Origin: Planctomycetota bacterium
GTDB taxonomy: Bacteria; Planctomycetota; Planctomycetia; Pirellulales; Lacipirellulaceae
Length of the DNA stretch: 32,000 nucleotides
Assembly (NCBI GenBank): GCA_029781135.1
Contig: JAKOXH010000031.1
Location: 112,697 to 144,696, forward strand
Direction of reading: 5' to 3'
Part shown: piece by piece, positions 3,705-23,115 of the stretch
How the letters are laid out: each line of letters opens with the position of its first letter
Position numbering within the stretch: the stretch's first letter is position 1
Position numbers and translations under genes: made by a program
The notes under the pieces: model-generated
Database searches by the model: none
The model's input: only the letters and a program-made list of their open reading frames with translations
Told to the model about the DNA's origin: nothing

Positions 3705-4352
3705 ATGCATCTTGTTCGTCGTTCCGTAAACCGACTGGTTTATTCGCAAGCTTTACTTCTAGCTATTTGCTTAATCGTCGGTGTTTCCCACCCGCAATGT
3801 GCCGCCGCAGATGAGGCGAATGGCACGAGCAGTCTTTTCAATGGCCGCGACCTCACTGGTTGGCAACCGGAAGGCCATGCGGTTTGGGAAGTCAAGGACG
3901 GGTTGCTCGTCGGCAAGCAGGATGAGCAGAACCGGCCAGGCGATCTGTTGACCAAGGAAGAGTTCAAGAACTTCGAACTTACCGTTGTGTATCGCATGGT
4001 GTGGCCGGGGAATAGCGGCGTGTGGTATCGCTATCAAACGGCCGACAAGGCGTTTCAGGCCGATATTCTGGAATACAAGAATCCGCTGGCATACAGCGGC
4101 AGCCTGTATTGCACGGGCAAGATGTTTTTGGCCCGTAATACGGACCCGAAACTTGAAAAGCACGACGGCTGGAACACACTCGTCATTCGGTCAGAAGGCG
4201 ACCACCAACAGATCACGCTCAATGGCAAACTCGTCGCCGATGTCCACGACGACACCAGCGATCATGGCCGCATCGGCTTCCAGGTGCATCCAGGCAAGGA
4301 ATTCGCCAAGATGCAGATCATCGTGAAGTCGGCGCGCATCAAGCGGCTGTAA
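3705..4352 (+). CDS. DUF1080 (3-keto-disaccharide hydrolase-like) secreted protein
   Basis: ATG at 3705 with aggag upstream. Signal peptide MHLVRRSVNRLVYSQALLLAICLIVG, then LFNGRDLTGWQ...W.V.DG.L and a C-terminal GRIGFQVH, typical of DUF1080. The track start at 3633 lies inside a REP hairpin. Confidence 0.8.
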   Translation: MHLVRRSVNRLVYSQALLLAICLIVGVSHPQCAAADEANGTSSLFNGRDLTGWQPEGHAVWEVKDGLLVGKQDEQNRPGDLLTKEEFKNFELTVVYRMVWPGNSGVWYRYQTADKAFQADILEYKNPLAYSGSLYCTGKMFLARNTDPKLEKHDGWNTLVIRSEGDHQQITLNGKLVADVHDDTSDHGRIGFQVHPGKEFAKMQIIVKSARIKRL

Positions 4353-4354
4353 GT

Positions 4355-4499
4355 GTGCCCATTCGCAGGCGTGCCATGCCCACAGCTCGCCGTGGGCATG
4401 GTATCCTCACGACGGCACGCATGGCCACTCCGAGCAGTGGCCATGGCACCCATGCGAATCCAGGGCATGGCGACCCCGTAGGTAAGGCTTCAGCCTGAC
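4355..4499. repeat. Cluster of REP-like hairpins
   Basis: Hairpins ccatgcccac-N8-gtgggcatgg (4374-4401), catggccact-N6-agtggccatg (4420-4445) and gtaaggcttcagcctgac (4482-4499). Confidence 0.7.
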
Positions 4500-4607
4500 C
4501 CGTTGTGGATGTTGGTCGCCCCACACGGCCTGACATACTCAGCTATAATAGGGAGAATTCAACAGCTTCCATGCGCGTCGTTACCTGGCGAGAAAACCCC
4601 TTGGATT

Positions 4608-6316: not shown

Positions 6317-6577
6317 ATGTCGACAGTCGCCAGTATTCTTGATTATTACCTCGAACCGTTGGCGTCAATGATCAATCGCGAAATGGCGGAAGCGATTATT
6401 AATCGGACGCCGGATCCGCAACTTGTTGCGCGGATCGCGGTTTTGGGACAGAAAGCTGAACAGGGCACGCTGACCGATGTCGAACGCGATGAGTATCGAG
6501 ATTTGATCGATGCCGGGGACCTGATTTCACTGTTGAAGTCGAAAGCGCGACGGTTCCTCGACGAGAATCCCGCGTAG
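6317..6577 (+). CDS. Small helical protein of unknown function, translationally coupled to the HNH gene (antitoxin-like partner)
   Basis: 86 aa from ATG 6317. The stop is 3 nt before the HNH start. I recognise no domain. Confidence 0.6.
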   Translation: MSTVASILDYYLEPLASMINREMAEAIINRTPDPQLVARIAVLGQKAEQGTLTDVERDEYRDLIDAGDLISLLKSKARRFLDENPA

Positions 6578-6580
6578 CTC

Positions 6581-6976
6581 ATGGAGACATCGGGACGAGA
6601 ACTTGTGCGGCAGCGTGCCGGCGGCAGGTGTGAGTATTGCCGGCTGCCCGAAGAAGCCGACGAGTGGCCATTCCACTTCGAGCATGTGATTGCGAAACAG
6701 CACGGTGGAACCGATTCGGCCGATAACCTATGCTGGTCGTGCAGTCGCTGCAACTTCTATAAAGGTCCGAATATCGCCAGCATTGACGTTGCCACCGGGG
6801 TGATGGTCGGACTCTTTCATCCTCGCCATGATGTTTGGAAAGAGCATTTTGACGTTCGTGGCCCGCACATCATTGGATTGACTGCTAGGGGCAGGGCAAC
6901 AGTTCGACTGCTCCATATGAATGACGACCGACGTTTGGATTTACGACGTGATTTGATCGAGCGGGAAATCATTTAG
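6581..6976 (+). CDS. HNH endonuclease
   Basis: 131 aa with CEYCRLPE...FHFEHVIAKQHGGTDSADNLCWSCSRCNFYKG, a Cys4 plus H-N-H core. Confidence 0.85.
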   Translation: METSGRELVRQRAGGRCEYCRLPEEADEWPFHFEHVIAKQHGGTDSADNLCWSCSRCNFYKGPNIASIDVATGVMVGLFHPRHDVWKEHFDVRGPHIIGLTARGRATVRLLHMNDDRRLDLRRDLIEREII

Positions 6977-7011: not shown

Positions 7012-8859
7012 ATGCCGCCGGAGGACAAGAGTGCTTCGCGCAACTTCATCCAGCAAATCATCGACGCCGACCGGGCCGCCGGGAAGAACGGTGGGCGGGT
7101 ACACACGCGGTTTCCGCCGGAGCCGAACGGGTATTTGCATATCGGCCATGCGAAGAGCATTTGTCTGAACTTTGGCCTCGCGCAGGAGTTCGGCGGTAAG
7201 TTCAACCTGCGGTTCGACGACACGAACCCGACGAAGGAAGAGCAAGAGTACGTCGACTCGATTGTGGACGATGTCAATTGGCTCATCGCGGCGTTTGGCG
7301 AGACGCAAGGGTTCAGGGCTCAGGGTTCAGAGTCGACATCGGCGGCGCGAACTGAACCCCGAACCCTGAATCCTGAACCCTTGTACGCTTCGGATTACTT
7401 TCAGCAGCTTTACGATTGGGCAATCCAGCTTATCAAAGAAGGCAAGGCATACGTGTGCGACCTATCGGCGGAGGAAGTGCGCGCCCATCGCGGCACACTG
7501 AGCGAGCCAGGCAAGAACAGCCCGTATCGCGATCGCAGCGTGGCTGAGAACTTAGAACTGTTCGAGCAAATGAAGAAGGGCGAGTTCCCCGACGGCACGC
7601 GCACGTTGCGGGCAAAGATCGACATGGCGTCGCCGAACCTCAACCTGCGCGACCCCGTGATGTACCGCATCAAGCATGCGTCGCACCATCGCACGGGCGA
7701 CAAGTGGTGCATCTACCCGTCCTACGATTACACGCACGGCCAAAGCGATTCGATCGAGGGCATTACGCACTCGATTTGCACGCTGGAGTTTGAGAACCAC
7801 CGACCGCTGTACGATTGGTTTTGCCGCGAGTTGCGGATTCATCACCCGCAGCAGATCGAATTCGCGCGGCTCAACCTCACGTACACCGTGATGAGCAAGC
7901 GCAAGCTATTGCAGTTGGTGCAAGAAAAGCACGTGGCCGGTTGGGATGATCCGCGGATGCTCACGATTCGCGGCCTGCGCCGCCGTGGCTACACGCCCGA
8001 GGCAATTCGGGCATTCTGCGAGCGGATCGGCGTGGCGAAGTTCGATAGCACAATCGAAATGACGTGGCTCGAAGACGCCGTCCGCGAGGATCTCAACGAG
8101 CGGGCCCCGCGAGTGATGGCCGTGCTGCGGCCGCTCAAGGTGGTCATCACGAATTATCCCGAGGGGCAAGTCGAGCAGTTGGAAGCGGCAAACCACCCGC
8201 AGAACGCCGCGATGGGCACGCGGCAAGTGCCGTTTGCACGCGAGTTGTACATCGAGGCCGACGACTTCATGGAAGACGCGCCGAAGAAATTCTTCCGGCT
8301 CGCCCCCGGGCGCGAAGTGCGGCTGCGGTACGCGTATTTCATCACTTGCAACGAAGTGGTGAAGGATAAGGCCGGTAACATCATAGAGCTACGCTGCACA
8401 TACGACCCGGCCACCCGCGGCGGCAATGCCCCGGATGGCCGCAAGGTAAAGGGCACGATTCACTGGGTGGCGGCCCCGATGGCTGCGACGGCAGAAATTC
8501 GCGTGTATGACCATTTATTCAAGACCGAGTTTCCTGATGAGGTCGAGGGTCAAGGGTCGAGCGTCGAGGGCCAGACCAAAGTGACCAGCGCTGTATCCTC
8601 ATCCTCTGTCCCTCGACCCTCGACGCTCGACCCTCGACCCCACAGCTTCCTCGACAACATCAACCCCAATTCGCTGACCATCGTCCACGACGCCAAGCTC
8701 GAACCCTCGCTTGCTGCGGCACAGCCTGGCCAGCATTTCCAGTTCGAGCGATTGGGCTACTTCTTCACCGACCCGGTTGCTTCCAAGCCCGGCACCGCCA
8801 TTTTCAATCGCACGGCAACGCTCCGCGATACATGGGCAAAAGAAGCTGGAAAGGAATGA
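7012..8859 (+). CDS. glnS: Glutamine--tRNA ligase
   Basis: 615 aa. HIGH motif [21 protein letters not shown] (KMSKS-like), and class I GlnRS-type sequence throughout. Carries two extra low-complexity segments. Confidence 0.95.
7306..7383. repeat. In-frame hairpin element inside glnS (GGNTCAG heptamer arms)
   Basis: Arm caagggttcagggctcagggttcag, loop, then ctgaaccccgaaccctgaatcctgaacccttg. It is 78 nt, exactly 26 codons ([26 protein letters not shown]). Confidence 0.85.
8541..8640. repeat. In-frame hairpin element inside glnS (GGTCGAG heptamer arms)
   Basis: Arm ggtcgagggtcaagggtcgagcgtcgaggg, a 39-nt loop, then ccctcgaccctcgacgctcgaccctcgacc. Encodes [11 protein letters not shown]...[10 protein letters not shown]. 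Confidence 0.85.
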
Positions 8860-8987
8860 ATTCCTTGTACGGCGCGCGGTGGTAAAAGCCTCACGGCACC
8901 ATTCGAGCCGACGCGGCGGACTGGTGAGACTCGGACAATTTGGCTGGAAGGCTTGTAATTTGGTAGGGCGCGGTTACATTGCCGCCT

Positions 8988-11501
8988 ATGGATACCACCC
9001 GAATGTCACGCGCGGCATTGGCAGCGATGTTCATCGTCATCGGGTCATCGCACATTGCGACCACCTTCGCGCAAACCTTCTGGACCGCTGGCACCGGTGA
9101 CTGGAACACGGCGAGCAATTGGAGCCTCGGTGTTCCTGACGCGGGTGGCGGAACCGCGTTCGATGCGGTGATTGAAAACGGCGGTACCGCGCAACTCCTC
9201 GGCCTGCCGGCCGGCAGCGTACGACGGCTCCGCGTGGGGCGCACCGCCGGCGGCGGTCATTTGGTCGTCGATGGCGTGCCTTTGACCGTGACCGAAAACC
9301 TGCATCTCAACGAAACCAGTTCCGCGCCGGCCTCGGTGACCGTGCAAAACGGCGCCACCGTATCGTCGCCGAGCACGATCGTGGGCTATTCCAGCACTCC
9401 CAACACTGATTTCACGATCACCGGAGCAGGCACCACATTCAACGCGGCAACGCAATTTATCGTGGGAAACTCGGGCGCGGGAACTGCCTCGCTCACCGTC
9501 GACGCAGGGGCCGTGCTCACCAGCGGCACGGGCTGGGTCGGTAACGGCTCGGGAGCAACGGGTGTGGCGCTTGTCCGCAACCCCGGCTCCACGTGGTCGA
9601 CCGCCACCACGCTCACCGTGGGCAACACCGGGACCGGCACACTGACGATTGAAGACCAAGGCGTGGTATTCGTTGGTACGGCCCTTGGAATCAACAGCGC
9701 GAGCACCGTCAATCTCAACGGGGGCACGCTCCGCTTCAATACGGTCGGCGGCGCCGGCGGCCTGAGCCGCCTCAATTACACCGCCGGCACGATCCAGCTT
9801 GCCGGCAACCGCGAGATGCTGTTCGATACCACCATTCTTGCCATTTACGGCTCGTCGCCGGTGATTCCCACGGGGAAGGAACTGATTGTCGAAGGAACGA
9901 CCACGGTCCATCAGGATAAGACGCTGAGTGTGAATGGCGGTAGTTTCATTTCACAGGGCCTGCTAACCGTTGGAGCCATGAATTCCGGCAGCGGCACGTT
10001 GCTTGTTTCCTTGGCCGGTACCGCCCAGGCGAAATCTGGTGCGGTCGTCGACCAGTTCGGTTTTGTCCGCGTGAACGGTGCAGGATCGAGTTGGAACGTC
10101 ACCGGCAATCTCAACATCGCTTCCGTCACCCGCGGCGACCTGGTAATCGACAACCAGGGCAGTGTCTACGTCACCGGTGCACTGACACTTGGCTTTTCCA
10201 GCCATTTCACGCTCAATGGCGGCACGATCCGCTTCAACGGCTACAGCCGCACCATACCGTCATCATTGTTCTTCTATCCGGCGGGCACGGTTCAACTTGC
10301 CGGGGATAGGACGATTGGAGGCGATGCGGCGATCCAGGACTTCTTTGGTGCGGCACCCAACATCCCAACGGGCAAAGCGCTCGTAGTGGAAGGCACGGCC
10401 CTGCTAACCTCCACGACGCCCGTGATACTTTCGGGCGGCACCCTCGGCGCGGATACACTACTGCTCTCGCCCGCTAGCCATTTGACGACCGTGCAGCCGT
10501 CCCAAGTATCGGGGGTGGTCCTCGCCCTGGCCGGCTCCGTGATCGATACGACGAACCAGAACCTTTCGCTCGGCGATGCGGCCAAAGTGAACGGCTTTTA
10601 CAGTAATGGCACGTTGCGCGTGGGACAGTCCACTGTGACGCTTCTCGACGCCAACGACGCGGTGTTCGACTCGGCCGCGCTCGTCACGCTCGGTTCCGGG
10701 GGTAGCCCGGGGACAATGGACGCGGCCAACGGCCTGACGCTCGACTTCGGCGGCAACATCCTCGGGACGGGTACGATCAGCACGCCCAACGACATTGCCA
10801 AGCCGCTCATCGTCAATGGCCACATTACGGGCGACAGCGTCGCGCAGTCCATCACGCTCCCCGGCTACGTCAAAGGCGTTGGCACATTCGACAACGTAAA
10901 TTTCACGGGTACGTTTTCACCGGGCCTGTCGCCGACGATTCTCGCCGTGGGCAACGTCGCACTCGCGCCCACCAGTACGCTCGTAATGGAACTAGGCGGC
11001 ACAACGCCCGGCGGCGGCTACGATCAAATCCGATCCTCCGGCGCACTTGCGTTGGGCGGCACGCTGCAGGTGTCACTGATAAATGGCTTCACGCCGGCAG
11101 CCGGCGAGTCATTTAACCTGTTCGATTGGACCGGCACGAGTGGGACATTCGCCACACTCGCCCTGCCGGCGCTTGGCAGCGGCCTCGCCTGGAACACCGC
11201 GCAGCTCTACGCGACCGGCGTCCTCAGCGTAATCGGTGTCGGGCTGCCCGGCGACTACAACAACAACGGCGTGGTCGATGCTGCCGACTATGTACTATGG
11301 CGCAAGAGTCCCAGCTCTTATGGCGGCAGCCCGGCCGGCTACGACACCTGGCGCGCTAATTTCGGCCGAACTGCGGGCAGCGGCGCCAGTTCCGCGCTCT
11401 CCGTCGACACTGCGGTTCCCGAACCAACGAGTTGCGTGTTACTTTTGCTCGCCGCCTTCGTCGTAGGCGGCGTTCATCGATTGAAGAATTTCTTGGCTTG
11501 A
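8988..11501 (+). CDS. Repeat-rich beta-helix-type surface protein (autotransporter/PEP-CTERM-associated repeats) with dockerin-like module and PEP-CTERM anchor
   Basis: Signal peptide MDTTRMSRAALAAMFIVIGSSHIATTFA and an N-terminal W..GTGDWNTASNWS. Has repeated G.GTLTI..QG.V.V...L.....TVNLNGGTLRFN units, GDYNNNGVVDAADYVLWR, and a C-terminal VPEPTSCVLLLLAAFVVGGVHRLK. Confidence 0.8.
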   Translation: MDTTRMSRAALAAMFIVIGSSHIATTFAQTFWTAGTGDWNTASNWSLGVPDAGGGTAFDAVIENGGTAQLLGLPAGSVRRLRVGRTAGGGHLVVDGVPLTVTENLHLNETSSAPASVTVQNGATVSSPSTIVGYSSTPNTDFTITGAGTTFNAATQFIVGNSGAGTASLTVDAGAVLTSGTGWVGNGSGATGVALVRNPGSTWSTATTLTVGNTGTGTLTIEDQGVVFVGTALGINSASTVNLNGGTLRFNTVGGAGGLSRLNYTAGTIQLAGNREMLFDTTILAIYGSSPVIPTGKELIVEGTTTVHQDKTLSVNGGSFISQGLLTVGAMNSGSGTLLVSLAGTAQAKSGAVVDQFGFVRVNGAGSSWNVTGNLNIASVTRGDLVIDNQGSVYVTGALTLGFSSHFTLNGGTIRFNGYSRTIPSSLFFYPAGTVQLAGDRTIGGDAAIQDFFGAAPNIPTGKALVVEGTALLTSTTPVILSGGTLGADTLLLSPASHLTTVQPSQVSGVVLALAGSVIDTTNQNLSLGDAAKVNGFYSNGTLRVGQSTVTLLDANDAVFDSAALVTLGSGGSPGTMDAANGLTLDFGGNILGTGTISTPNDIAKPLIVNGHITGDSVAQSITLPGYVKGVGTFDNVNFTGTFSPGLSPTILAVGNVALAPTSTLVMELGGTTPGGGYDQIRSSGALALGGTLQVSLINGFTPAAGESFNLFDWTGTSGTFATLALPALGSGLAWNTAQLYATGVLSVIGVGLPGDYNNNGVVDAADYVLWRKSPSSYGGSPAGYDTWRANFGRTAGSGASSALSVDTAVPEPTSCVLLLLAAFVVGGVHRLKNFLA

Positions 11502-11521
11502 TCTTCGGCCTCGGAAGGAGC

Positions 11522-11644
11522 TTTCAATTCGAGCCTTTAGGCAACTTCTTTACGAACCCGGCTGCTTCCAAACCTGGCACCCCCATTTTCAATCGCGCTG
11601 CGACATTACGCGACACTTGGGCGAAGGAAGCTGGGAAAGACGAG
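11522..11644 (+). pseudogene. Detached second copy of the glnS 3' end (last 40 codons)
   Basis: Translates [40 protein letters not shown] versus the glnS C-terminus [40 protein letters not shown]. The stop is replaced by gag. Confidence 0.85.
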
Positions 11645-11695
11645 GAATTTCGGCCAATTTCATCGGCAATTTTCGTGGAACTCCCTCCCGTCGAG

Positions 11696-11704
11696 TGGTA
11701 TAAT
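11696..11704 (+). promoter_or_regulatory. Extended -10 promoter element (TGGTATAAT) upstream of the second surface-protein gene
   Basis: tggtataat is a perfect TGnTATAAT, 64 nt upstream of ATG 11768. The -35 is weak (tggaac). Confidence 0.4.
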
Positions 11705-11767
11705 CACCACCCGCTAGTGTACCGCAGCGGTAACTCGCTTTCTCGCTTTGGGAGGCAGTGGTTGGCA

Positions 11768-14700
11768 ATGATTCGTCGGCAAATGACTCGCAGTTCCGTT
11801 TTCGTAGTTATGGCATTTGCTTCGTCGCTCCTGCTGCCGAATTCGGCTCGCGCCACCAAGTTCTGGAAGAACAGTGTCACGAGCGGCAACTGGTCCAATG
11901 GAAATAACTGGAGTGCCGTCTCCGCCGCTGGGGCCGATAACGGCGGCGTGCCGGTGGCAAGTGAACAAACGCGGATCGTAAATACGGATGGCGTGGCGCG
12001 CACGGTAACGCTCGATACGAATACACCGTCGCTCGGACTCGTAGCCATCGACCTCACGGGTGCCGGTACAACAGCCAACACGCTCTCAATTCCTAACAAC
12101 AACACAATGACCGTGGGTGCCATGGCAGTGGGTGGCCACAATGGCGTCACGACCACCAACGGTCGAGGCGCGCTGACGCAAGCCAACGGCTCCGTCACGA
12201 TTAGTTCGGGGCTCGACCTGGTGGTTGGCTGGGGCGCGGGCTCCACCGGCACATACACCTTAAGCGGCGGGTCGCTCACCGCGCCACAATCGGAATTCAT
12301 CGGTTCCTCGGGAACCGGCACGTTCAATCACTCCGGGGGCACGAACACAATTTTGGCCGGCGCAATCGGCTATTTGAATGTTGGCACGTCCTCTGGCGCC
12401 ATGGGGAATTACAACCTTAGCGGCACGGGACAGCTCATCTCGAACAAATCGGAATACATCGGCGACGCCGGCGCTGGCAACTTCGTTCAAACCGGTGGTT
12501 CAAACACCATTGTGGGCACTGGCAACAGCCTGTATCTCGGATACAGCACAACAAATACTAGCCCTACCGGTGGCACGTACGCACTTAGCTCCGGCTCGCT
12601 CACGGTTAGTGGCCAAATGTACGTCGGGTATAACAAGGTGGGGGCATTTAACCAAAGTGGCGGCACAGTGAATATAAATGGCCATACCACCGAAGATCTC
12701 GTAATTAGCGGTGCGGGAAGTGCAACTGGCAGCTTTAATCAAACCGGGGGAACATTCCATGCCGAGGGACTCGTGAAGGTCGGCTACACGGGACTTGGAA
12801 GCCTCGTCATCGATGGGCAAGATTCGGACTTTTCAGCGCTTTTCATCGAAATCGGGCAGTATGGTACTGGCAATATGGTTGTTAGTGGAGGAGCTTCGGC
12901 AACTTTTAATCTGGACGTCGATCTTGCTTTCAACGGCACCGCCCATGTTACGGTGAAGGATCCCGGATCTCTCCTGCAAACAAACAGCTATCTAGTGCTT
13001 GGCAATGGCGGAGTGGGTACCTTGGATATTCAAAATCAAGGCGTTGTCAGCATTGGGACGGATTTGATTGTTCATCTCAATAGTGCGGTCAATGTGATTG
13101 GCGGCACGCTACGCCTCAACAGCATTGATACTGGAGACATGGACCGAGTGAACTATTCGTCTGGAACAATCCAGCTTATCGGTAACCGTACGGTTGGCAG
13201 CGCGTCGGGCGATGCGATCGTTTCTCACTTTTTTGGCGGCGCTCCTACGATTCCGATTGGAAAAGGGTTGACTGTGGAGGGTACGGCGACGCTTCTGACT
13301 TCTACCGTGATCGACGGCGGCACATTTTCCGTCGGTCAACTGGCGAACGCAGCCAACTTGGGAATGAATCGGGGTACATTCAACCTCACCAACCAAGCCC
13401 TGACGATCGGTGCGGGCGGAACATTCGGCAGCACGCTCGATATTAACACTGGCATGACCGTCAACGTGACCCTCGGCACCACGAACCAAGGCCTCGTCAC
13501 GGGCGACGGCGAAATCGGCGGTACGTTCACCAACGCGGCGGCCGGCGAGCTGCGCGGCGAGCCGGGAAAGTCGCTGAAGTTAACGGGCGCAAGCAACACG
13601 AACGCCGGTCAAATCAACTTGCTCGGTGGGCTCGTCGAATACACGCAAGGACTGACCAACAACGCCGGCGGCTTTATCTCGGGCAATGGCACACTGAAAA
13701 CGAACGCTCTCACCAACAGCGGTACGATGAATTTCAGCGGCCTCGCGAACATCGTCGGCGATGTCACGAATAACGCCGGTGGGAAAATCATCTCTTCCGG
13801 CGGTGGACCTACGACGTTCTTCGACGATGTCACGAATAACGGCGAGATTCGAACGACGTCCGGCTCTTTTACGGTCTTCTACGGTGCTGCCACGGGTTCT
13901 GGCACGTACACCGGGCTGGGCACGGTGAACTTCGAAGGTGATCTCAAGCCAGGGAACAGCCCGGCCGCTGTCCACTTCGACGGAGACGTCGTTCTTGGCA
14001 CAGCGTCGACACTTCGTATGGAATTAGGCGGCAGTACCGTTGGCAGCCAATACGATCAAATCAATGTGGCGGGCAAGCTCACGCTCGGCGGCACACTGGA
14101 AATAACACTGATCAATGGTTTCATTCCCACCCTAGGTCAGTCGTTTGATTTGTTGAATTGGGGAACCGTGGCCGGTGCCTTTGCATCGCTCCAATTGCCC
14201 TCGGTGCCCGGCCTCGTCTGGAACACGTCGCAGCTTAGTGCTGGAATTGTAAGTATTGTGGCAGCCGGCATTCCTGGCGATTACAACAACAACGGCGTCG
14301 TCGATGCAGCCGATTATGTGCTGTGGCGCGAGAATCCCAGCGCCTACGGCGGAAGCCCGGCGGGCTACAACACGTGGCGTACCAATATTGGCCAAACCGC
14401 GGGAAGTGGTACTGGGTCGTCCCTTGGTTTCACAGACACTTCCGTTCCCGAACCGGCTGGAATCGTGCTACTCGCAGTCGCTGCCGCCAGCCTGCTTGGC
14501 GCCCGAAAGGCATTCAGCATGTTAAGAACTGCTGCGCTAGCGTGCCTGGTTTCCTTATTGGTAACGTCGCGGTTAACGTTCGCCGGAACGGTAATCACTG
14601 CCAACTTGCCGCCCAATACGGCCATCGTCAACATCGATGCGAAGCAGGATGGCGCGGCAACTTGGAACAGCGGCCAAGACAGTTGGTTCCATCCATTCTT

Positions 14701-15637
14701 CACAGGCGGGGCCACGGGGCTGCTGCAGTACGCCATCGCCCCAGGAACGTATCAATTCCGCTTGACGAACCCTTCGCTGGCCGCAACGCAGTTTCCTGCG
14801 CTCACCGCTGGCCAACTCTCCCAAATTTTCACGGCATGGACGTATAACTCACCGTGGATCACCGACTACTTCGTTTTCGACAGTGCCGGCGCCACCAATT
14901 TTTCCGTTCCGCAAATTTTCGCGGGAGCGATTCGGCCGAGCGGACTCACCGGAGGAACCGGCTCTGCCACCGAGGCCTTCAACTTGGCCACCACGTACGA
15001 ATTCGACGATGTGATCGTCAAACAGCCCGGTGGGCGAATTACCGGCGTTCGCACGACGCTCTATACGTTCACCGCACCAGAAACGCTCACCTTTGCCGTT
15101 CCCGACAATATCCTCTCCGATAATAACGGTGGAATATCAGTCGTTATCAGCCAGGTCGCAGGCGTCGGCGTCCCCGGCGACTACAACAACAACGGCGGCG
15201 TCGACGCGGCCGACTACGTTCTGTGGCGCAACGGCGGCCCGTTAGCGAATGAAGTTGATGCACCGGGGACTGTCAACGCGCAGGATTACATGGAATGGCG
15301 AAACCGCTTTGGCAACACGAGCGGCAGCGCCGCGCTCGCGGGTCATTCAACAGTCCCTGAGCCGGGAATTGGCGGCCTCATATTCGTGCTCTGCGTTACG
15401 CTGGGAATATTCAATCGCACGGCGACACGATGCGATACGTTAGCGAATGAATTTGGAAGGAAACCAATGGCCTGCCATCGACAAAGGATACGTAAAACCA
15501 CGGGACGCGTCCTTCCGTCAACCCCTTCGAAAGCCAGCCCTTCCGTAGCTGCGGCGAACTCTCGTCTCTTAAAGCCAACGTCGAACGCGCGCTCGGTATT
15601 CATCGTACTGGATGCCGAACGTTCCTTGGAGTTTTGA
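11768..15637 (+). CDS. Dockerin/PEP-CTERM surface protein ORF: two gene-like units fused without a stop (unit B 11768-14518, unit C 14519-15637)
   Basis: GGGAGG lies 12 nt before ATG 11768, followed by signal peptide MIRRQMTRSSVFVVMAFASSLLLPNSARA. Unit B is a paralog of 8988-11501 and ends in VPEPAGIVLLAVAAASLLGARKAFS. It is followed in frame by a new signal-like MLRTAALACLVSLLVTSRLTFAG. Unit C has its own GDYNNNGGVDAADYVLWR and VPEPGIGGLIFVLCVTLG. Confidence 0.7.
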   Translation: MIRRQMTRSSVFVVMAFASSLLLPNSARATKFWKNSVTSGNWSNGNNWSAVSAAGADNGGVPVASEQTRIVNTDGVARTVTLDTNTPSLGLVAIDLTGAGTTANTLSIPNNNTMTVGAMAVGGHNGVTTTNGRGALTQANGSVTISSGLDLVVGWGAGSTGTYTLSGGSLTAPQSEFIGSSGTGTFNHSGGTNTILAGAIGYLNVGTSSGAMGNYNLSGTGQLISNKSEYIGDAGAGNFVQTGGSNTIVGTGNSLYLGYSTTNTSPTGGTYALSSGSLTVSGQMYVGYNKVGAFNQSGGTVNINGHTTEDLVISGAGSATGSFNQTGGTFHAEGLVKVGYTGLGSLVIDGQDSDFSALFIEIGQYGTGNMVVSGGASATFNLDVDLAFNGTAHVTVKDPGSLLQTNSYLVLGNGGVGTLDIQNQGVVSIGTDLIVHLNSAVNVIGGTLRLNSIDTGDMDRVNYSSGTIQLIGNRTVGSASGDAIVSHFFGGAPTIPIGKGLTVEGTATLLTSTVIDGGTFSVGQLANAANLGMNRGTFNLTNQALTIGAGGTFGSTLDINTGMTVNVTLGTTNQGLVTGDGEIGGTFTNAAAGELRGEPGKSLKLTGASNTNAGQINLLGGLVEYTQGLTNNAGGFISGNGTLKTNALTNSGTMNFSGLANIVGDVTNNAGGKIISSGGGPTTFFDDVTNNGEIRTTSGSFTVFYGAATGSGTYTGLGTVNFEGDLKPGNSPAAVHFDGDVVLGTASTLRMELGGSTVGSQYDQINVAGKLTLGGTLEITLINGFIPTLGQSFDLLNWGTVAGAFASLQLPSVPGLVWNTSQLSAGIVSIVAAGIPGDYNNNGVVDAADYVLWRENPSAYGGSPAGYNTWRTNIGQTAGSGTGSSLGFTDTSVPEPAGIVLLAVAAASLLGARKAFSMLRTAALACLVSLLVTSRLTFAGTVITANLPPNTAIVNIDAKQDGAATWNSGQDSWFHPFFTGGATGLLQYAIAPGTYQFRLTNPSLAATQFPALTAGQLSQIFTAWTYNSPWITDYFVFDSAGATNFSVPQIFAGAIRPSGLTGGTGSATEAFNLATTYEFDDVIVKQPGGRITGVRTTLYTFTAPETLTFAVPDNILSDNNGGISVVISQVAGVGVPGDYNNNGGVDAADYVLWRNGGPLANEVDAPGTVNAQDYMEWRNRFGNTSGSAALAGHSTVPEPGIGGLIFVLCVTLGIFNRTATRCDTLANEFGRKPMACHRQRIRKTTGRVLPSTPSKASPSVAAANSRLLKPTSNARSVFIVLDAERSLEF
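15407..15466 (+). pseudogene. Third, more degraded copy of the glnS 3' end (last 20 codons), fused to the end of unit C
   Basis: IFNRTATRCDTLANEFGRK versus gln[23 protein letters not shown] atattcaatcgcacggcgaca versus attttcaatcgcacggcaacg. Confidence 0.65.
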
Positions 15638-16045
15638 TTCTTCCAGCGGAATCACGATCCAGTTAACGTACGCGATCGCCACGGGCAGAAAAACGATCGG
15701 CCAGAAGTGGCTTAACAGCAGAGCCTCACCGAGGTACGCGATTGTGAGACCGATATACATGGGGTTCCGCGTGAAGCGATACGGGCCCCAAGTGACCATC
15801 TGCGAGGAAATTTTACCGGGAACCGTCGTCGTGTGAGCCCGCCAGAAAGTCACCAGTCCCCAACCGGCGACGACAACACCGACGCCTAAGGTGACGCCAC
15901 CGACGATGCTTACATCGGGCACTTGTTCCACAATTCGCAATGGGTACGCTCGTTCCACGGCGAAGCCGATCAGGTACACGAGCACGAATATCCACGGCAC
16001 GGGAAGACGTAACAGAAATCGGATTGGGTTGCGAGTGGGCTCCAT
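15569..16045 (-). CDS. Isoprenylcysteine carboxyl methyltransferase (ICMT/PEMT) family membrane protein
   Basis: ATG at 16045. Multi-TM protein with TWGPYRFTRNPMYIG and a C-terminal EE..L...FG..Y..Y...V.RW pattern. Confidence 0.8.
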   Translation of the reverse strand: MEPTRNPIRFLLRLPVPWIFVLVYLIGFAVERAYPLRIVEQVPDVSIVGGVTLGVGVVVAGWGLVTFWRAHTTTVPGKISSQMVTWGPYRFTRNPMYIGLTIAYLGEALLLSHFWPIVFLPVAIAYVNWIVIPLEESKLQGTFGIQYDEYRARVRRWL

Positions 16046-16110
16046 GATTGCGACTTCGATATGCCTGGTTCGCGGCGACACTTGGCAAGCTTACCATGGC
16101 TGAGCAATGC

Positions 16111-16229
16111 TTCGCAGGCGTCAGGCTTCAGCCTGACCAGTTTTGCGGCGGGATGCCCTATCGTCAGGCTAAAGCCTGACCTACGTTGCGTTACCAATAC
16201 TCGTACCGCAGGAACAGTTCTTGTTCGCG
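16111..16229. repeat. 119-bp direct repeat, copy 1 (two REP-like palindromes plus a remnant of the ABC gene's last 13 codons and stop)
   Basis: Over the 110 nt I aligned base by base, I counted 9 mismatches against 16925-17043, at a constant 814-nt offset. The reverse strand of 16191-16232 reads NREQELFLRYEYW*. Confidence 0.8.
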
Positions 16230-16242
16230 GTTGTAAAAGCGA

Positions 16243-16587
16243 CTAGAGTCGTTCTGCCCCAAGGATAAGCGCCAGTTGGTCGCGGAGCGTGGGAACCTTA
16301 TTCACGACGACATCCCAAACGATGTCGTAATCAACGGCAAAGTAGCCGTGAATGAGCCGGTCACGCATGCCTACGACGGTTTGCCAAGGTACTGTCGGGT
16401 GCTTATCCCGAAATGACTGCGGAATCCCCTTGGCCGCATCGCCGAGAATTTCAATACTGCGGACGAAAGCCCGGCGGCGAGTCTCATCGGCGAGAAACTG
16501 TTGCCGGTCGATGCGTTGAGATTCGACGACGAGATACTCCGTTTCGTCGAGCATGTGTTGCGCCAAATCAGTCACCGAGTTCGACAT
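16243..16587 (-). CDS. hepT: HepT (DUF86/HEPN) ribonuclease toxin of a type VII TA pair
   Basis: ATG at 16587 overlaps the mntA end by 20 nt. RX4HXY motif in GMRDRLIHGYFAVDYDIVWDVV. Confidence 0.85.
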   Translation of the reverse strand: MSNSVTDLAQHMLDETEYLVVESQRIDRQQFLADETRRRAFVRSIEILGDAAKGIPQSFRDKHPTVPWQTVVGMRDRLIHGYFAVDYDIVWDVVVNKVPTLRDQLALILGAERL

Positions 16588-16884
16588 CCTCGACCTCGGC
16601 AAGAATTCGTGGGCCGATGTAAGGGCTTAGCGACTCGGTTGTCACAAGTTCCACGCGTCGCTGCAACACGCTTTCCAGCAAATCGGCCAGGGCCATGAAG
16701 TTATCGAACGTCTTTTCACCCGCGCGAAATTCGACCAACAGATCGACGTCGCTATTTGGCTCGCATCGTTTCGCGCGAACGAACCGAATAGCCCGAGCCG
16801 GCGAACGCCGTGGGACCGGATTCGCCTCGGCTCCTGGGCGAGGCGTTGCAGCAAATCGTGTTTTTCGGTGACGGCTGCGACCAT
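16568..16884 (-). pseudogene. mntA: MntA-type nucleotidyltransferase antitoxin, interrupted by a 1-nt frameshift
   Basis: The N-terminal frame (ATG 16884) gives ...GVRRLGLFGSFARNDA. The C-terminal frame gives EPNSDVDLLVEF...RRVELVT. The frames join only if one base is added near 16762/16763. Confidence 0.75.
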
Positions 16885-16924
16885 ATCTTGATTCTAGCAC
16901 GTAACATCTGGACTTTCACGTCCC

Positions 16925-17043
16925 GATTCGTAGGTCAGGCTTCAGCCTGACCAGTTTTGCAGTGGGATGCTGTATCGTCAGACTAAAGCCTGACCTACGT
17001 TGCGTTACCAATACACGTATCGCAGGAACAGCTCTTGTTCACG
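16925..17043. repeat. 119-bp direct repeat, copy 2 (overlaps the true 3' end of the ABC gene)
   Basis: See 16111-16229. Contains gtcaggcttcagcctgac and gtcagactaaagcctgac hairpins, plus codons EREQELFLRYVYW*. Confidence 0.8.
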
Positions 17044-20000
17044 TTCGGGCAGGGCTTCGACGTCGGGGACCAGGTAGCGGTTGTCGTCGAGATCAAGGAG
17101 GATCTTGCCGCGTTCGCCGAAGTCTTGCACCTGGCTTTGGCTCCAGCGCATCGTGAATTGGCGCGGGCCGTGGGCGGTGCGGACGTCGAGCGTCAAGTGC
17201 CCAAGCTCGAGCTTGATCGAATCGACGCCCGTGACGGTTTGTAGCCAGTAGCGGCGGTTGAGGGCCTCGCGCACGAGCACGCGGGCTTCCACGGGCCACT
17301 CGTCGAGGCGCCGCACGATGCCGATTTCGTGCTCGGTGCCGTCGCGGTTCCACACGCGGAGGCTGATGTAGTCGTCCGGGTTGGTGGCCGGGAAGAGGTT
17401 GACGGCGAACACACCACGCCACGTGGTCGAGTCTCTCCGAGACTCGAACGAACTGTTAAAGTCTGGCGGTGATTTGGAATCCGCGTCTCGGAGAGACGCC
17501 GCCACATGCACTTCCATGCCGCCGAGGCGGGCGGTGTGGATACGTGTATCGTTGGGCGTGAGCCAGCGTAGCTGACTTGATTGGTTGATGGCCGACGACT
17601 CGGCCGCCAATTCGTCGGTTGAGCGAGCTTCGCCCTGGAGACGCACGAGGTTCGCGTACTGGCCGCCATGAGCGATCAACAGTTCGTGGGTGCCTTGCTC
17701 GACGAGCCGACCGCGATCGAACACCAGAATGCGATCAGAATCGCGCAAGGTCGATAGCCGATGGGCGATGGCGATGGTGGTTCGCCCGCAAGTGAGGGCC
17801 TTGAGGGCTTGCTGAATCGCCTGCTCACTTTCGGCGTCGATGTTGCTCGTCGCTTCGTCGAGCACCAGGATCGGCGGATCGTACAGAATCGCCCGGGCGA
17901 TCGACATCCGTTGCCGTTCGCCGCCAGAAAGTCCGGCACCGCGTTCGCCCAGCCAGGTATCGTAACCCAGCGGCGAGTTGAGAATGAAATCGTGAGCCTG
18001 GGCAGCCTTGGCCGCCGCGATGGCTTGTTCCGGTGTGCTTTCCGGCATCCCGTACACAAGGTTCTGCCAAATCGTACCGCGGAACAGGAACGGGTCTTGG
18101 AGCACGACGCCGATGTGCCGACGCAGCTGCCCAGAAGGCAGCCGTCGCACATCAATGCCATCGACCAACACGCGGCCTTCGCAGACGTCGTAGAACCGGC
18201 AGAGCAAGTTGACGAGCGTCGTTTTGCCGCTGCCGCTTTTGCCCACGATACCGATCGTCTCGCCGGCGCGAATTTCGAAGTCGATATCGCGCAGCACCGG
18301 CTGATGCCGCTCGTAGCCGAACGTAACGTGGTCGAAACGGATATGACCAAGGGCGGAGGGAGTGGGAGAATGGGAGAGTGGGAGAGTGGGAGAATCAGGT
18401 GAGCGGTCGTTCGAAGGGTCTCCCCCTCTCCCCCTCTCCTTGTCTCCCCCTCTATTCATCGAAGTAATTTCGGGTAAGTTCAGAGGATCGGATGGCTCCA
18501 TCACTTCCACCGGCGTATCGAGCAATTCAAATACACGTTGGCAACCGGTAAGAAAGTTAGTCAGCCACGTGGTGAATTGCGAAAGCGTAGCCAACGGCGT
18601 GTAGAACATCGCCAAGTACGCCAGGAACGCCATCAGCGAGCCGAGAGACATGGTGCCGGCAAGAACATCGCGACCGCCGACATACCAGACGATCAGGCCA
18701 CCCAAACTGAAAATGAGTTGCATTGTCGCGGAAAACGCGGCCGTCGAATAATCAACGTGCATGCGACAGGCACGCAGGTAATCGCTAATTTTGTTGAACC
18801 GGGCGAACTCGCGGTCCTCCTGGGCAAAGGCCTTCACGACGCGAATGCCGGAAAGCATGCCGGTGAGCATGCCAGCTTGTTTGGCGCTGGAATCCCAGTA
18901 GCGATAGTGCTTGGGATGGACGTGCTTCCAAAAGAACCAACTGCCGGCGATCACAAGCGGCGCTGGAATTAGCGTGAACAGCGCAAGTTTCGGGTTGAGC
19001 GTCGTGAGCATAATGCCCACAGCTGTCACCTGAACGATTTGTAGCAAGAAACCGCCCGTAATTTGGTGCAACAGGCTTTGAATGACTTCGCTGTCGTACG
19101 CCACGCGACTGGTGATCGAGCCGACTTGATGGCGGTCGTAATAGCCGAGACCCAGCATGTGGAGTTTTTCCACGAGCTTGGCGCGTAGATCGAAGGTAAG
19201 CGCCACGCCGACGCGAGTCGCCATCCGGCCTTTGGCAAAGTTGACCGCACTCAACACGAGCCGAGCGGCGGCGAGCGACGACACGACCACGAACAGGCCG
19301 AAGAACAGGCCGGGGGTGTCGGGCGAGCGTTGACCACTCTTGAGAATGTGATCGACCAGGTATTGCTGCAACTTGGGTGGCGTGAGTTCGGCGGCCACGG
19401 CCAAACACATGAGGCCGCACATCACGAAAGCAGTGACACGATACGGCCACAACATTTGCACGAGCCGAGCAAGGATGGCCTTGCGGGGAATACAGCGCGG
19501 ACAAGCTTCATTCGGCACGGGCAAGCGCTGTCCGCACTTTTCGCAGTGTGTTTTCTTGGGAGTCGCGTCTTCCTGAAACTCGACCTTGCCGTCAGTGCGC
19601 AGGTCTTCCAGGTACTTAGCCAGGCGACTGAAGCGATCGGCCTCAGTATTGGGAAAGCGGGCCAGGTCGACCCAATAGTCGTCGACGTAGGCTTGAAGGA
19701 AGCCGGAGCCAACCGCGTTTTGCGTGCGGAACTCGCGGACCTGGGAAACGGGCACATGCACAACGACGCTTGGCGCCGCAGCGCCGTTTGGTTCACCAGA
19801 TGGCGAGAGGGGGAGAGGGGGAGAGGGGGAGGATCTTGAGTGGAGCGTTTTCGACGGAATCTCCCCCTCTCCCCCTCTCCCATTCTCCCGCTCTTTGGCT
19901 GCCTCGCCCTCTTTGATCGCGGCCACATTTTCGCGCGTGGCCACGATCCAGTTCCGCTCTGGCTCGCCAGACAGCGAGAGCTCGCTGCTGGCACAGAGCA

Positions 20001-20073
20001 GCACGGGCACGCCGTTGAGACCACGACGGTCCAGTTCTTCATGAACATCCACCGGCAATTCTTCAGTAAACAT
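17005..20073 (-). CDS. Multidomain ABC exporter: N-terminal cytoplasmic domain + zinc ribbon + type I exporter TMD + NBD + C-terminal DUF1854-like domain
   Basis: 1022 aa. Contains HCEKCGQRLPVPNEACPRC, six-TM region, Walker A GKSGSGKTT, signature LSGGERQR, and Walker B ILVLDEATS. The roughly 190-aa C-terminal extension ends in ...DDNRYLVPDVEALPEREQELFLRYVYW. Confidence 0.85.
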   Translation of the reverse strand: MFTEELPVDVHEELDRRGLNGVPVLLCASSELSLSGEPERNWIVATRENVAAIKEGEAAKERENGRGGEGEIPSKTLHSRSSPSPPLPLSPSGEPNGAAAPSVVVHVPVSQVREFRTQNAVGSGFLQAYVDDYWVDLARFPNTEADRFSRLAKYLEDLRTDGKVEFQEDATPKKTHCEKCGQRLPVPNEACPRCIPRKAILARLVQMLWPYRVTAFVMCGLMCLAVAAELTPPKLQQYLVDHILKSGQRSPDTPGLFFGLFVVVSSLAAARLVLSAVNFAKGRMATRVGVALTFDLRAKLVEKLHMLGLGYYDRHQVGSITSRVAYDSEVIQSLLHQITGGFLLQIVQVTAVGIMLTTLNPKLALFTLIPAPLVIAGSWFFWKHVHPKHYRYWDSSAKQAGMLTGMLSGIRVVKAFAQEDREFARFNKISDYLRACRMHVDYSTAAFSATMQLIFSLGGLIVWYVGGRDVLAGTMSLGSLMAFLAYLAMFYTPLATLSQFTTWLTNFLTGCQRVFELLDTPVEVMEPSDPLNLPEITSMNRGGDKERGRGGDPSNDRSPDSPTLPLSHSPTPSALGHIRFDHVTFGYERHQPVLRDIDFEIRAGETIGIVGKSGSGKTTLVNLLCRFYDVCEGRVLVDGIDVRRLPSGQLRRHIGVVLQDPFLFRGTIWQNLVYGMPESTPEQAIAAAKAAQAHDFILNSPLGYDTWLGERGAGLSGGERQRMSIARAILYDPPILVLDEATSNIDAESEQAIQQALKALTCGRTTIAIAHRLSTLRDSDRILVFDRGRLVEQGTHELLIAHGGQYANLVRLQGEARSTDELAAESSAINQSSQLRWLTPNDTRIHTARLGGMEVHVAASLRDADSKSPPDFNSSFESRRDSTTWRGVFAVNLFPATNPDDYISLRVWNRDGTEHEIGIVRRLDEWPVEARVLVREALNRRYWLQTVTGVDSIKLELGHLTLDVRTAHGPRQFTMRWSQSQVQDFGERGKILLDLDDNRYLVPDVEALPEREQELFLRYVYW
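18355..18453. repeat. In-frame hairpin element inside the ABC gene (TMD-NBD linker)
   Basis: Arm ggagggagtgggagaatgggagagtgggagagtgggagaat, loop, then tctccccctctccccctctccttgtctccccctct. Encodes RGGDKERGRGGDPSNDRSPDSPTLPLSHSPTPS. Confidence 0.8.
19805..19894. repeat. In-frame hairpin element inside the ABC gene (N-terminal domain)
   Basis: Arm gagagggggagagggggagagggggagg, a 27-nt loop, then tctccccctctccccctctcccattctccc, with about 20 bp of perfect pairing. Encodes GRGGEGEIPSKTLHSRSSPSPPLPLSPS. Confidence 0.85.
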
Positions 20074-22105: not shown

Positions 22106-22170
22106 TGCTTGCCTCTGTTCGCTTCACTGAAGGTTGAAATCTATCTGCTCCGTTAGCCCGTTCTCGATGC

Positions 22171-22256
22171 GAGACAAGGAGACAAGGAGAGGGGGAGACA
22201 AGAAGATCGCGATTCACACTTGTCTCCTTGTGTCCTTGTCTCCTTGTCTTCCTCTC
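22171..22256. repeat. Hairpin element (GAGACAAG octamer arms) between motA and motB
   Basis: Arm gagacaaggagacaaggagagggggagacaag, a 13-nt loop, then cttgtctccttgtgtccttgtctccttgtct. The right arm touches the motA stop codon (22255-22257). Confidence 0.85.
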
Positions 22257-23115
22257 ACGCTGCTTCCGCTTCCTTAAACCAGGCATCCAGCTCTTCGCGT
22301 TCCGGGCGGAACTCCGTCGACACGCTGCGGCGTGCCATTTCGATCGCCACTTTGGGGGGCAAGTTGTTGGCAAAGCCGACAATGGCCGACGCAATTACCT
22401 TGAAGAACGCCCCTTCCTGTAAACCCATGTTATGCAAGCGCACTGAAAGCGGGGCCGCGAAACCGTACGACAACAAAATCCCCAAAAACGTACCTACCAG
22501 GGCCGCCCCCACTTTGTGACCAATCTCGGCCGGTGGGCCATCGATGTGCGCCATCGTGATCACGATGCCCAGCACGGCTGCCACAATCCCAAACCCGGGC
22601 AACGCATCGGCCACCGATTGCAGAGCGTGCGACGGCGCATGGTGCTCGTCTTCCATGATCCGCAGTTCGATTTCCATCAGGTCGGCGATCTGTTCGGGCT
22701 TTACCGTGGCGTCGACCAGCGGCCCCATGCCGCCACAAATGAAGTGCAGCAGATGGTGGTCGTGCGCGACCTTCGGATACTTGTTGAAAATGGTGCTGTC
22801 GTGAGCTTTCGAAAGGTGTGGTTCCAGGGCGAGCATGCCGTCGCGGCGGGCGAGCCGCAGCAAGTCGTAAAGGCATTTGAACGACGCTTCATACGCCGCT
22901 TTGTTGTAGGGTGATCCTTTCAGTGCGCCGATGAGGCCCTTGACCATGTCGATCAAGACCTTCTTGGGCGTGGCGACGATCATCCCGCCCAACGCCGCGC
23001 CACCGATCGTCACGAACTCAGAAGGGTGAATGAGCGCGCCGATCTGCCCGCCGGCCATCATGAAGCCGCCGAGTACCGAGCCAATGACAACAAGAATACC
23101 AACGATTACAAGCAT
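22255..23115 (-). CDS. motA: Flagellar motor stator protein MotA
   Basis: 286 aa, collinear with my memory of E. coli MotA: MLVIVGILVVIGSVLGGFMMAGG..., LPGFGIVAAVLGIV, ALVGTFLGILLSYGF. Confidence 0.9.
   Translation of the reverse strand: MLVIVGILVVIGSVLGGFMMAGGQIGALIHPSEFVTIGGAALGGMIVATPKKVLIDMVKGLIGALKGSPYNKAAYEASFKCLYDLLRLARRDGMLALEPHLSKAHDSTIFNKYPKVAHDHHLLHFICGGMGPLVDATVKPEQIADLMEIELRIMEDEHHAPSHALQSVADALPGFGIVAAVLGIVITMAHIDGPPAEIGHKVGAALVGTFLGILLSYGFAAPLSVRLHNMGLQEGAFFKVIASAIVGFANNLPPKVAIEMARRSVSTEFRPEREELDAWFKEAEAA

Follow-up and report, generated by a model that had tools for sequence, protein, structure and literature searches.

How does a small toxin-antitoxin (TA) pair come to lie exactly between two copies of a segment that contains the 3' end of the gene next door? 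The question is raised by a locus in a stretch of 32,000 nt (the window, meaning the whole stretch that was analysed) from a Planctomycetota bacterium of the family Lacipirellulaceae (assembly GCA_029781135.1, contig JAKOXH010000031.1, positions 112,697 to 144,696). Here an mntA-hepT cassette separates an ABC transporter gene with a C-terminal DUF1854 domain (ABC-DUF1854, in short ABC) from a methyltransferase gene of the PEMT/ICMT family (in short ICMT), and it is bracketed by two direct repeats, R1 and R2. Each repeat combines the end of the ABC gene with a doublet of repetitive extragenic palindromic (REP) sequences, an arrangement known as REPIN. In this study we find that the repeats are true duplicates of one composite segment, that related genomes have the same spacer without TA genes, and that a similar geometry recurs at a second gene, glnS. 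We give an even chance to the explanation that an 814-bp segment, consisting of one repeat and the cassette, is an insertion in the ABC-ICMT spacer that created a long target duplication via a single crossover. Every gene here is transcribed from the minus strand; the parts, listed in the reading direction, are these.

17005-20073, minus strand: ABC transporter gene with C-terminal DUF1854, 1022 aa (Pfam ABC_membrane, ABC_tran and DUF1854; 100% match to P0001).
16925-17043: R2, the copy that now terminates the ABC gene (REPIN 16929-16999, 5 nt 17000-17004, ABC end 17005-17043).
16891-16919, minus strand: promoter-like site of the cassette (GTGAAA, 17 nt, TG-TAGAAT), with the TAGAAT region conserved in the cassettes of two relatives, L117 and L119.
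16568-16884, minus strand: mntA, MNT nucleotidyltransferase antitoxin, a frameshifted pseudogene (1-nt deletion at about 16762/16763).
16243-16587, minus strand: hepT, HEPN RNase toxin, 114 aa, intact (Pfam HepT-like 1.8e-25; identical to P0121).
16230-16242: 13-nt junction from the hepT stop to R1, no homology found.
16111-16229: R1, the putatively displaced copy (ABC end 16191-16229, 5 nt 16186-16190, REP doublet 16113-16185).
16046-16110, minus strand: native upstream region of ICMT, about 65 nt, attached to R1 (94% identical to the spacer of the relative L128).
15569-16045, minus strand: PEMT/ICMT-family methyltransferase gene (ICMT), 158 aa (Pfam PEMT 2.7e-12, ICMT 5.5e-7).

The repeat pair is far beyond chance. 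A repeat search of the window aligned 16120-16229 with 16934-17043, that is 110 nt with 92% identity at an offset of 814 nt, and 695 bp separate R1 from R2. Counting base by base we found exactly 9 mismatches, at 16147 (G/A), 16149 (C/T), 16157 (C/T), 16158 (C/G), 16168 (G/A), 16201 (T/A), 16206 (C/T), 16218 (T/C) and 16227 (G/A). This recount agrees with the first-pass annotation of the locus, which had reported a TA cassette bracketed by direct repeats at this constant offset with the same number of mismatches and the same distance between them. The annotation had, however, given the repeats as 119 nt without indels, and this length fails: the outermost 9 nt (16111-16119 and 16925-16933) match at 1/9 positions when the offset is kept constant and can be aligned solely via a 2-nt indel (TTCGCAGGCG versus TTCGTAGG). 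Therefore the indel-free repeat is 110 nt long.

The duplicated unit consists, in this order, of a REP (CGTAGGTCAGGCTnnAGCCTGAC), a 25-nt spacer, an inverted REP, 5 nt and the last 12 codons plus stop of ABC-DUF1854. The corresponding codons of the resident gene (17005-17043) fall within R2 and translate as EREQELFLRYVYW followed by the stop, while the orphan end in R1 reads NREQELFLRYEYW followed by the stop. Five codons differ between the two ends, three of these five synonymously, and the translations confirm what had been said of the distal repeat, namely that it holds the ABC C-terminus with its stop. A change from V to E is present in R1 only, at a residue that is V in the ABC orthologs read, and it is R2 that provides the functional C-terminus of the transporter. 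The ABC orthologs, 57-90% identical, come from named Lacipirellulaceae and Pirellulales (Planctomycetota), and the close ones that were read (77-90% identity) terminate in FLRYVYW. Overall R1 and R2 have diverged by 8%, or by 12% if the REP cores and the 5-nt linker are left out. By part, the REP cores carry 1 mismatch in 41 nt and the spacer 4 in 25, and the longest identical runs common to both copies are 32 and 27 nt.

Could two separate REP insertions imitate such a pair? The first-pass annotation had cautioned that only about 16-25 nt were gene-specific and that a third copy at 1883-1924 resembled the unit up to the stop codon. Both cautions can be dropped: the gene-end part private to the unit measures 44 nt (16186-16229 in R1), and of the third copy only the 23 nt of the REP core align significantly. 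The REP consensus stops at CCTACG: on the 3' side of it, no position is conserved among 133 REP copies from other genomes. When the repeats were compared with 836 kb of REP-bearing loci of other genomes and with the rest of the window, a way of separating REP from locus-specific sequence that had been proposed with the annotation, they matched over the 23-29 nt of the REP core only. In the window the 25-nt spacer and the 44-nt flank occur in R1 and R2 alone, and the part coding for EQELFLRY has two occurrences. R1 and R2 are accordingly true duplicates of a composite segment rather than two separate REP insertions, because in the sequence compared only the REP cores are dispersed and spacer and flank are shared by no other copy. 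The many scattered copies of the full unit that, according to the annotation, would have reduced it to a REP composite did not turn up in that sequence. A contig of independent origin (Logan contig L127, run SRR15686344) is 100% identical to window positions 7210-16198 and reproduces R1; it breaks within the 32-nt run common to R1 and R2, which we read as the behaviour of a k-mer assembler at a true repeat.

What kind of palindromes are these? REPINs have been described as doublets of inverted REPs that fold as a hairpin (PMC3116915, PMC3337134). The doublet in R2 has this architecture, with arms at 16929-16951 and 16977-16999 on either side of the 25-nt spacer, and it can form a hairpin of 23 bp (dG -46.2 kcal/mol, z -9.0) whose outer end is the canonical REP extension CCTACG; the outer arm of the R1 doublet is degenerate. 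The hairpins are located in the ABC-mntA and hepT-ICMT spacers, and no intrinsic terminator pattern was seen in these two spacers. Across the 32-kb window the REP pattern has 6 matches at 4 loci, against 0.00 expected. The two loci outside the repeats are a degenerate doublet with a distinct 29-nt spacer at 1832-1905, in the intergenic region after a PTPS gene, and a singlet at 4477-4507 just upstream of an S10 peptidase gene. In the genome collection the REP core of about 23 nt is present, among the matches listed, at >110 loci, mostly of Planctomycetota but also of proteobacterial, acidobacterial and Thermoanaerobaculia metagenome-assembled genomes and of the isolate Thalassotalea profundi, and these matches (loci L003-L112) share the exact 23-mer CGTAGGTCAGGCTnnAGYCTGAC. 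A single REP sequence across phyla is unusual for systems of REPs and REP-associated tyrosine transposases (RAYTs), which are described as vertically inherited. In three of the loci REPs flank RAYT-like Y1_Tnp genes (L069 3987-4619, L085 2328-2780 and L104 2131-2826; Y1_Tnp 1e-5 to 7e-12). No RAYT (Y1_Tnp) gene was found in the 32-kb window, and L001, L002 and L113-L119 gave no REP matches.

Related genomes show what the site looks like without the cassette. The annotation had suggested looking for relatives in which ICMT follows ABC directly, and two were found. In L128, a Logan contig with 82% nucleotide identity to the window across ICMT, the ABC end (..EREQELFLRYVNW and stop) is followed by 5 nt, one REP, the ICMT upstream region and ICMT, with no TA genes in the ABC-ICMT spacer. 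In L113 (ABC 86% identical) 120 nt without a REP lie between ABC and ICMT, and the upstream core of ICMT, CATGG.AAGCTTGCCA, is recognisable there too. The L113 sequence is a long-read contig from ENA in which motA, a deacetylase gene and ABC are each split in two, probably through indel errors. Its annotated genes cannot be relied on, although the DNA itself shows the empty ABC-ICMT junction clearly. ICMT is the native downstream neighbour of ABC, with conserved synteny in L002, L113, L115 and L128.

Other relatives carry different cargo at this position. L115 and L116 (ABC 82% identical) have another small gene pair at 8979-9379, with sub-threshold matches to HicB and HicA, in the exact ABC-ICMT spacer, and a gene coding for 277 aa and one for a DUF1328 protein occupy the same site in L002, while L001 (ABC 91% identical) has lost ICMT. 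We saw no notable direct repeats around the HicBA-like pair of L115, the cargo of L002 or the mntA-hepT pair of L119. The ABC-ICMT spacer is a hotspot and a recurrent landing place of TA genes. A scan of metagenomes with the ABC C-terminal domain returned 7 loci, two of them already known, and none of these had remnants or TA genes.

The comparison also allows the events to be ordered. The REP at the site is older than the TA insertion, because it is common to the window and L128, and the REP doublet older than the duplication, because R1 and R2 have the same spacer. Compared with L001, which has the closest ABC, 43% of the four-fold degenerate sites of this gene differ; set against 8-12% between R1 and R2, the duplication is therefore specific to the lineage of the window. 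As to which copy was there first, the outer end of R1 (GACGCCTGCGAA) and the sequence downstream of it match the native ABC-REP-ICMT junction of L128, and R2 finishes in the canonical REP extension GACCTACGAA and then enters the cassette. Among the differences between R1 and R2 that are readable in L128, this relative sides with R1 at 3 substitutions and the 2-nt indel, and with R2 at 2 sites, one of them the functionally constrained Val codon. This suggests, on about 6 sites and hence weakly, that R1 is the displaced native copy and R2 the incoming or more derived one; we infer the polarity from these sites.

The cargo itself can be assigned at family level. In Shewanella, HepT is an RNase that MntA neutralises by poly-AMPylation of the Tyr in its RX4HXY motif (PMC7641770). 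The window has adjacent genes matching Pfam PF01909 (MNT) and PF01934 (HepT-like), with the antitoxin gene upstream and hepT overlapping its end by 20 nt, which is the arrangement of type VII systems. HepT scores 89.4 bits against a cut-off of 23.5 and contains the motif as RDRLIHGY. The NCBIfam equivalogs stay below their cut-offs of 60 (HepT_toxin NF047751, 41 bits; MntA_antitoxin NF047752, 47.5 bits). The cassette can hence be regarded as a HepT/MntA type VII (class I HEPN/MNT) TA system with membership at the family level only.

The presence of the two genes had been recognised in the first-pass annotation, but the frameshift that places the N- and C-terminal parts of mntA in different frames had been missed. 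In a tblastn search the intact 105-aa MntA of L117 and L119 matches the window in two pieces: residues 1-41 follow the frame that starts with the ATG at 16884, and the remainder is read in a different one. The break lies within the X10 of the GSX10DXD motif, with GS in one frame and DVD in the other, so that the intact motif is not encoded, and the site is not in a homopolymer. The NTP_transf_2 match is 3e-5 for the open reading frame (ORF) as encoded and 2e-13 after repair of one base, which also restores GS-X10-DVD. Neither mntA ORF is present in the protein collection. The encoded antitoxin appears to be inactive and the TA module decaying, because mntA is frameshifted, and this decay fits the divergence of the repeats; it is possible that the frameshift is a sequencing error instead. 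Homology at the DNA level with the cassettes of L117 and L119 begins some 30 nt before the mntA start codon, takes in the TAGAAT box and ends at the hepT stop, and from these limits the mobile unit is therefore about 690 bp. The 13-nt junction has no homology to ABC or to the sequence 3' of hepT in L117, L119 and L129, and no convincing microhomology or common motif was found at the cassette junctions of the window, L117, L119 and L129.

Is the ABC end a singular case? In this family ABC and glnS are convergent core genes that bound a variable region, and the first-pass annotation had seen the same geometry at glnS and proposed a common route of acquisition at gene 3' ends. This proposal gained support. 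In the window glnS lies at 7012-8859 on the plus strand, and two large paralogous genes for surface proteins (8979-11501 and about 11756-15400) are each followed by a repeat of its 3' end (8677-8856): copy 2 at 11513-11641 comprises 43 codons with 79% identity, and copy 3 at 15407-15463 comprises 19 codons. Copy 3 continues the reading frame of the second surface-protein gene and forms the tail of its PEP-CTERM-like anchor. Copies 2 and 3 have counterparts in L001; for the copy-3 region an alignment with L128 is found too.

The clearest parallel is L117, where an mntA-hepT pair (HepT 73% identical) is bracketed by 48-nt repeats of 94% identity that are remnants of the glnS end. Following the direction of glnS, the array at 3100-5950 contains glnS, a methyltransferase gene, a remnant, hepT and mntA, a remnant, PIN and ParD genes and a weak third remnant. 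The methyltransferase gene is inserted 5 codons before the glnS stop with a duplication of about 40 nt, by which the glnS tail is changed from EAAKD to EQVRP before the stop. In L129 (HepT 85% identical, glnS 85% identical to that of L117; 2400-3100) the hepT stop is 9 nt from the real glnS stop, and this locus shows the state before the methyltransferase insertion of L117. L117 also has, at 1061-1156, an orphan ABC-DUF1854 end of 32 codons plus stop (ALLDLHDNRYLVPDVKALPVHDSDLFQRYVNW), at a distance of 62 nt behind a glycosyltransferase gene, on a contig that stops before any parent ABC gene comes into view. In a control of 836 kb of unrelated loci no such gene-end remnants were found at E<0.1. 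Gene-end bracketing is recurrent and independent of REPs, because the bracketing at glnS in L117 occurs without any REP.

How could such a duplication have been made? In the scenario to which we give an even chance, the site before insertion would have been the ABC stop, 5 nt, the REP element, about 65 nt and ICMT. The insertion would then have duplicated about 115 bp of target, that is 12 codons plus stop of ABC, the 5 nt and the resident REP doublet. R2 would keep ABC whole and R1 the native upstream region of ICMT, so that neither neighbour would be damaged, and the REPIN would be a passenger and not the agent. A single reciprocal exchange (Campbell-type, insertion-duplication) between the resident site and donor DNA, which might be a circularised fragment, would be the simplest and likeliest way to this product without an enzyme of the element; the donor that we infer would be the mntA-hepT cassette of about 690 bp beside a homologous ABC end and REPIN, possibly from a relative with the cassette in the same variable region between ABC and glnS. 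The same product might alternatively result from a linear fragment anchored by homology, joined illegitimately and bridging two sister chromosomes. Merodiploid duplications from a donor fragment that bridges two chromatids in transformation are documented (PMC3784515). In either case the element would have relied on the recombination system of the host and not on a recombinase of its own. The scan of the window ORFs gave neither an integrase nor another recombinase, and the called genes listed for the loci of the relatives include none. Since both ABC and glnS are conserved, a homologous segment would always come along with DNA from relatives that have different cargo beside them. Across all cases the duplication length ranges from about 40 to 130 bp, and the upstream gene and the downstream promoter region are preserved.

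Several observations weigh against this explanation. The donor arrangement it calls for (ABC, REPIN and mntA-hepT without R1) was not found among the loci examined, and a single crossover over about 110 bp at 92% identity, with identical runs of at most 32 and 27 nt, is inefficient. The HicBA-like insertion of L115 and the mntA-hepT pair of L119 have no flanking repeats, so that either this mechanism does not account for every insertion or the repeats of older ones have been lost by decay. The EQVRP tail in L117 resembles no other glnS end seen, and it suits a blunt insertion with a duplication like that of a staggered cut, or an end borne by an element, at least as well as a homologous donor. 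In addition, the REPIN outer end is also a boundary of the repeat, as copying based on the REPIN would give, and the polarity argument depends on the few sites mentioned above.

Site-specific integration is possible, although we consider it unlikely. A miniature integrative element or its remnant, comparable to a cis-mobilisable element, would have supplied an attP with a replacement ABC 3' end, using a tyrosine or serine recombinase that acted in trans or was later deleted, and R2 would be attL and R1 attR. Repeats that include the 3' end of the target while the gene is kept intact are a hallmark of genomic islands such as SGI1 at trmE (PMC8409611). The glnS cargo arrays, parted by the same gene end, also look like tandem accretion at one att site, the EQVRP tail of L117 looks as if supplied by an element, and the ABC-end and glnS-end sites are reused in several genomes. 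An integration of this kind sits badly, however, with the lack of a recombinase gene in the ORFs scanned, with inserts as small as 0.7-0.9 kb and with repeat lengths that vary from case to case (about 40, 48, 57, 110 and 130 nt). Viral contigs give it no help either: the ABC-end pattern has 0 matches in a collection that may lack the element, the two matches to the glnS pattern lie within glnS ORFs (one of them complete, the other open at the edge of the sequence retrieved) and are no orphan attP-like fragments, and no HepT relatives were found in these contigs.

Local copying of the REPIN appears improbable. On this account the order ABC-REPIN-TA-ICMT existed first, and a RAYT (Y1 HUH) or a template switch at the hairpin copied the REPIN with 44 nt of flanking ABC sequence to a place 13 nt downstream of hepT, the bracketing being incidental. 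The coincidence of one repeat boundary with the REPIN outer end would be explained, the REP family is mobile and tied to Y1_Tnp genes (L069, L085 and L104), and between R1 and R2 the spacer has changed far more than the REP cores. Yet it is R1 and not R2 that has the native outer end and downstream sequence of L128. The native upstream neighbour of ICMT is therefore R1-like, contrary to what would be expected if a new copy had landed after hepT. The glnS bracketing in L117 needs no REP at all, and among 133 other REPIN instances 0 carry flanking gene sequence.

A staggered-break capture is, in our view, quite improbable. Nicks on opposite strands about 115 nt apart, one of them at the base of an extruded REPIN hairpin, would have been joined to the cassette, and fill-in would have produced the duplication. 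The geometry is that of a target-site duplication, in which the left copy is complete and the right copy begins exactly at the duplication start; one boundary is at the foot of a hairpin, and the methyltransferase gene in glnS of L117 also looks like a blunt insertion with a duplication of about 40 nt. We know of no bacterial process, however, that routinely makes duplications of 40-130 bp, and the divergence of 8-12% between R1 and R2 would require a long residence or a diverged donor copy, which this account does not supply. Finally, a chance composite of independent REP insertions or an assembly artefact is hardly credible: about 46 of the 110 nt are indeed REP core and REPs are dispersed, but the spacer and gene end are common to R1 and R2 only, 9 differing sites do not fit a collapsed or duplicated assembly, and the independent assembly L127 reproduces R1 exactly.

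Two known kinds of element were considered and rejected. A diversity-generating retroelement was dismissed since the mismatches are not adenine-specific and no reverse transcriptase is encoded in the ORFs scanned. An integron cassette with attC was dismissed since no IntI was found in the ORFs scanned and the boundaries (..CCTACGAA/TCGGG and ..TTTTACAA/CCGCGAA) are without RYYYAAC/GTTRRRY cores.

Some further features of the region deserve mention. A second kind of hairpin is present at 18360-18452, 19798-19894 and 22169-22260, and its inverted repeats, about 34 nt long, are made of units with an 8-nt period (GGGAGAGN / CTCTCCCN). Of these elements two lie within the ABC coding sequence, where they are translated in frame as low-complexity sequence (..GRGGEGE..SPSPPLPLSPS..), and the third is placed between motB and motA. 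Related repeats, rich in G and with an 8-nt period as well, are found at 856-1003. Such elements may account for the range of lengths among ABC orthologs, 923-1057 aa. The plus strand directly upstream of glnS carries, at 6581-6976, an ORF of 131 aa in which Pfam recognises an HNH endonuclease domain (9.5e-9). This ORF overlaps an antisense ORF at 6346-6753 (minus strand), the positional counterpart of an unannotated 127-aa gene in L114.

What does the locus mean? Taken individually it is an ordinary decaying TA insertion with modest consequences, both neighbours being intact and the TA pair already in decay; the part worth following is the recurrent duplication of gene ends at two convergent core genes without a visible recombinase. 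The identical runs of 32 and 27 nt that the two repeats still have in common are near the lower limit for RecA-dependent exchange, so loss of the cassette through R1 and R2, or its release as a circle carrying one repeat, is possible. An active TA system would have opposed such a loss, and with mntA broken this brake is probably gone, unless HepT is silenced or neutralised in trans. That the REPIN would have been carried along in the duplication and not have caused it is a distinction that matters when mechanisms are deduced from repeats.

It is tempting, although doubtful, to go further and to see in the Lacipirellulaceae a general gene-capture process at the 3' ends of the convergent ABC-DUF1854 and glnS genes, an integron-like platform without integrase and attC in which 40-130 bp are duplicated per acquisition. 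If this were true, its cargo would comprise TA pairs, a methyltransferase gene and giant surface-protein genes, in arrays parted by decaying copies of gene ends, and cassettes could excise and re-integrate via the repeats by host recombination or by a recombinase yet unrecognised. If the process were general, it would show how small cargo such as TA pairs can enter chromosomes without obvious mobile-element machinery. Conserved gene ends beside a variable region would then be the route, the scars would order the insertions in time, and recombination between repeats may keep the cassettes mobile.

As in the characterised HepT/MntA type VII system (PMC7641770), PF01909 and PF01934 genes are adjacent, mntA is upstream and overlaps hepT, RX4HXY is present and GSX10DXD can be recovered. 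The pair, here a predicted TA system, differs in that mntA is frameshifted inside its motif and the equivalog scores are sub-cut-off. With REPINs and RAYTs (PMC3116915, PMC3337134) the locus shares two inverted REPs around a spacer, the long hairpin and a dispersed core that flanks Y1_Tnp genes in other genomes. In contrast to these, the duplicated unit reaches 44 nt past the REPIN into a gene, its spacer is common to just two copies, the same 23-mer is found in several phyla and the window has no RAYT.

Chromosomal integron cassettes carry TA genes between structured attC repeats of about 120 bp, and like these the cassette is a small TA unit with its own promoter between hairpin-capable repeats of about 110 bp; it has neither IntI nor the boundary cores, and its repeats come from a neighbouring housekeeping gene. 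Islands and cis-mobilisable elements at gene 3' ends, such as SGI1 at trmE (PMC8409611) and tycheposons at tRNA genes (10.1101/2020.12.28.424599), likewise have end repeats that include the 3' end of a target left intact. They also share with our loci the reuse of sites, which yields cargo arrays parted by decaying copies of gene ends. They differ in that the insert here is 0.7 kb, with no integrase found in cis or in the relatives' loci, and in that the repeats here are 110 nt long and 92% identical, vary in length per event and contain a REPIN. Campbell-type insertion-duplication and transformation merodiploids (PMC3784515) differ from the present case, in which the donor is hypothetical, the homology is short and diverged, and competence or transfer of the host is hypothetical too. 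Nevertheless they offer the same product, since one exchange via short homology places an insert between two copies without any enzyme of the element.

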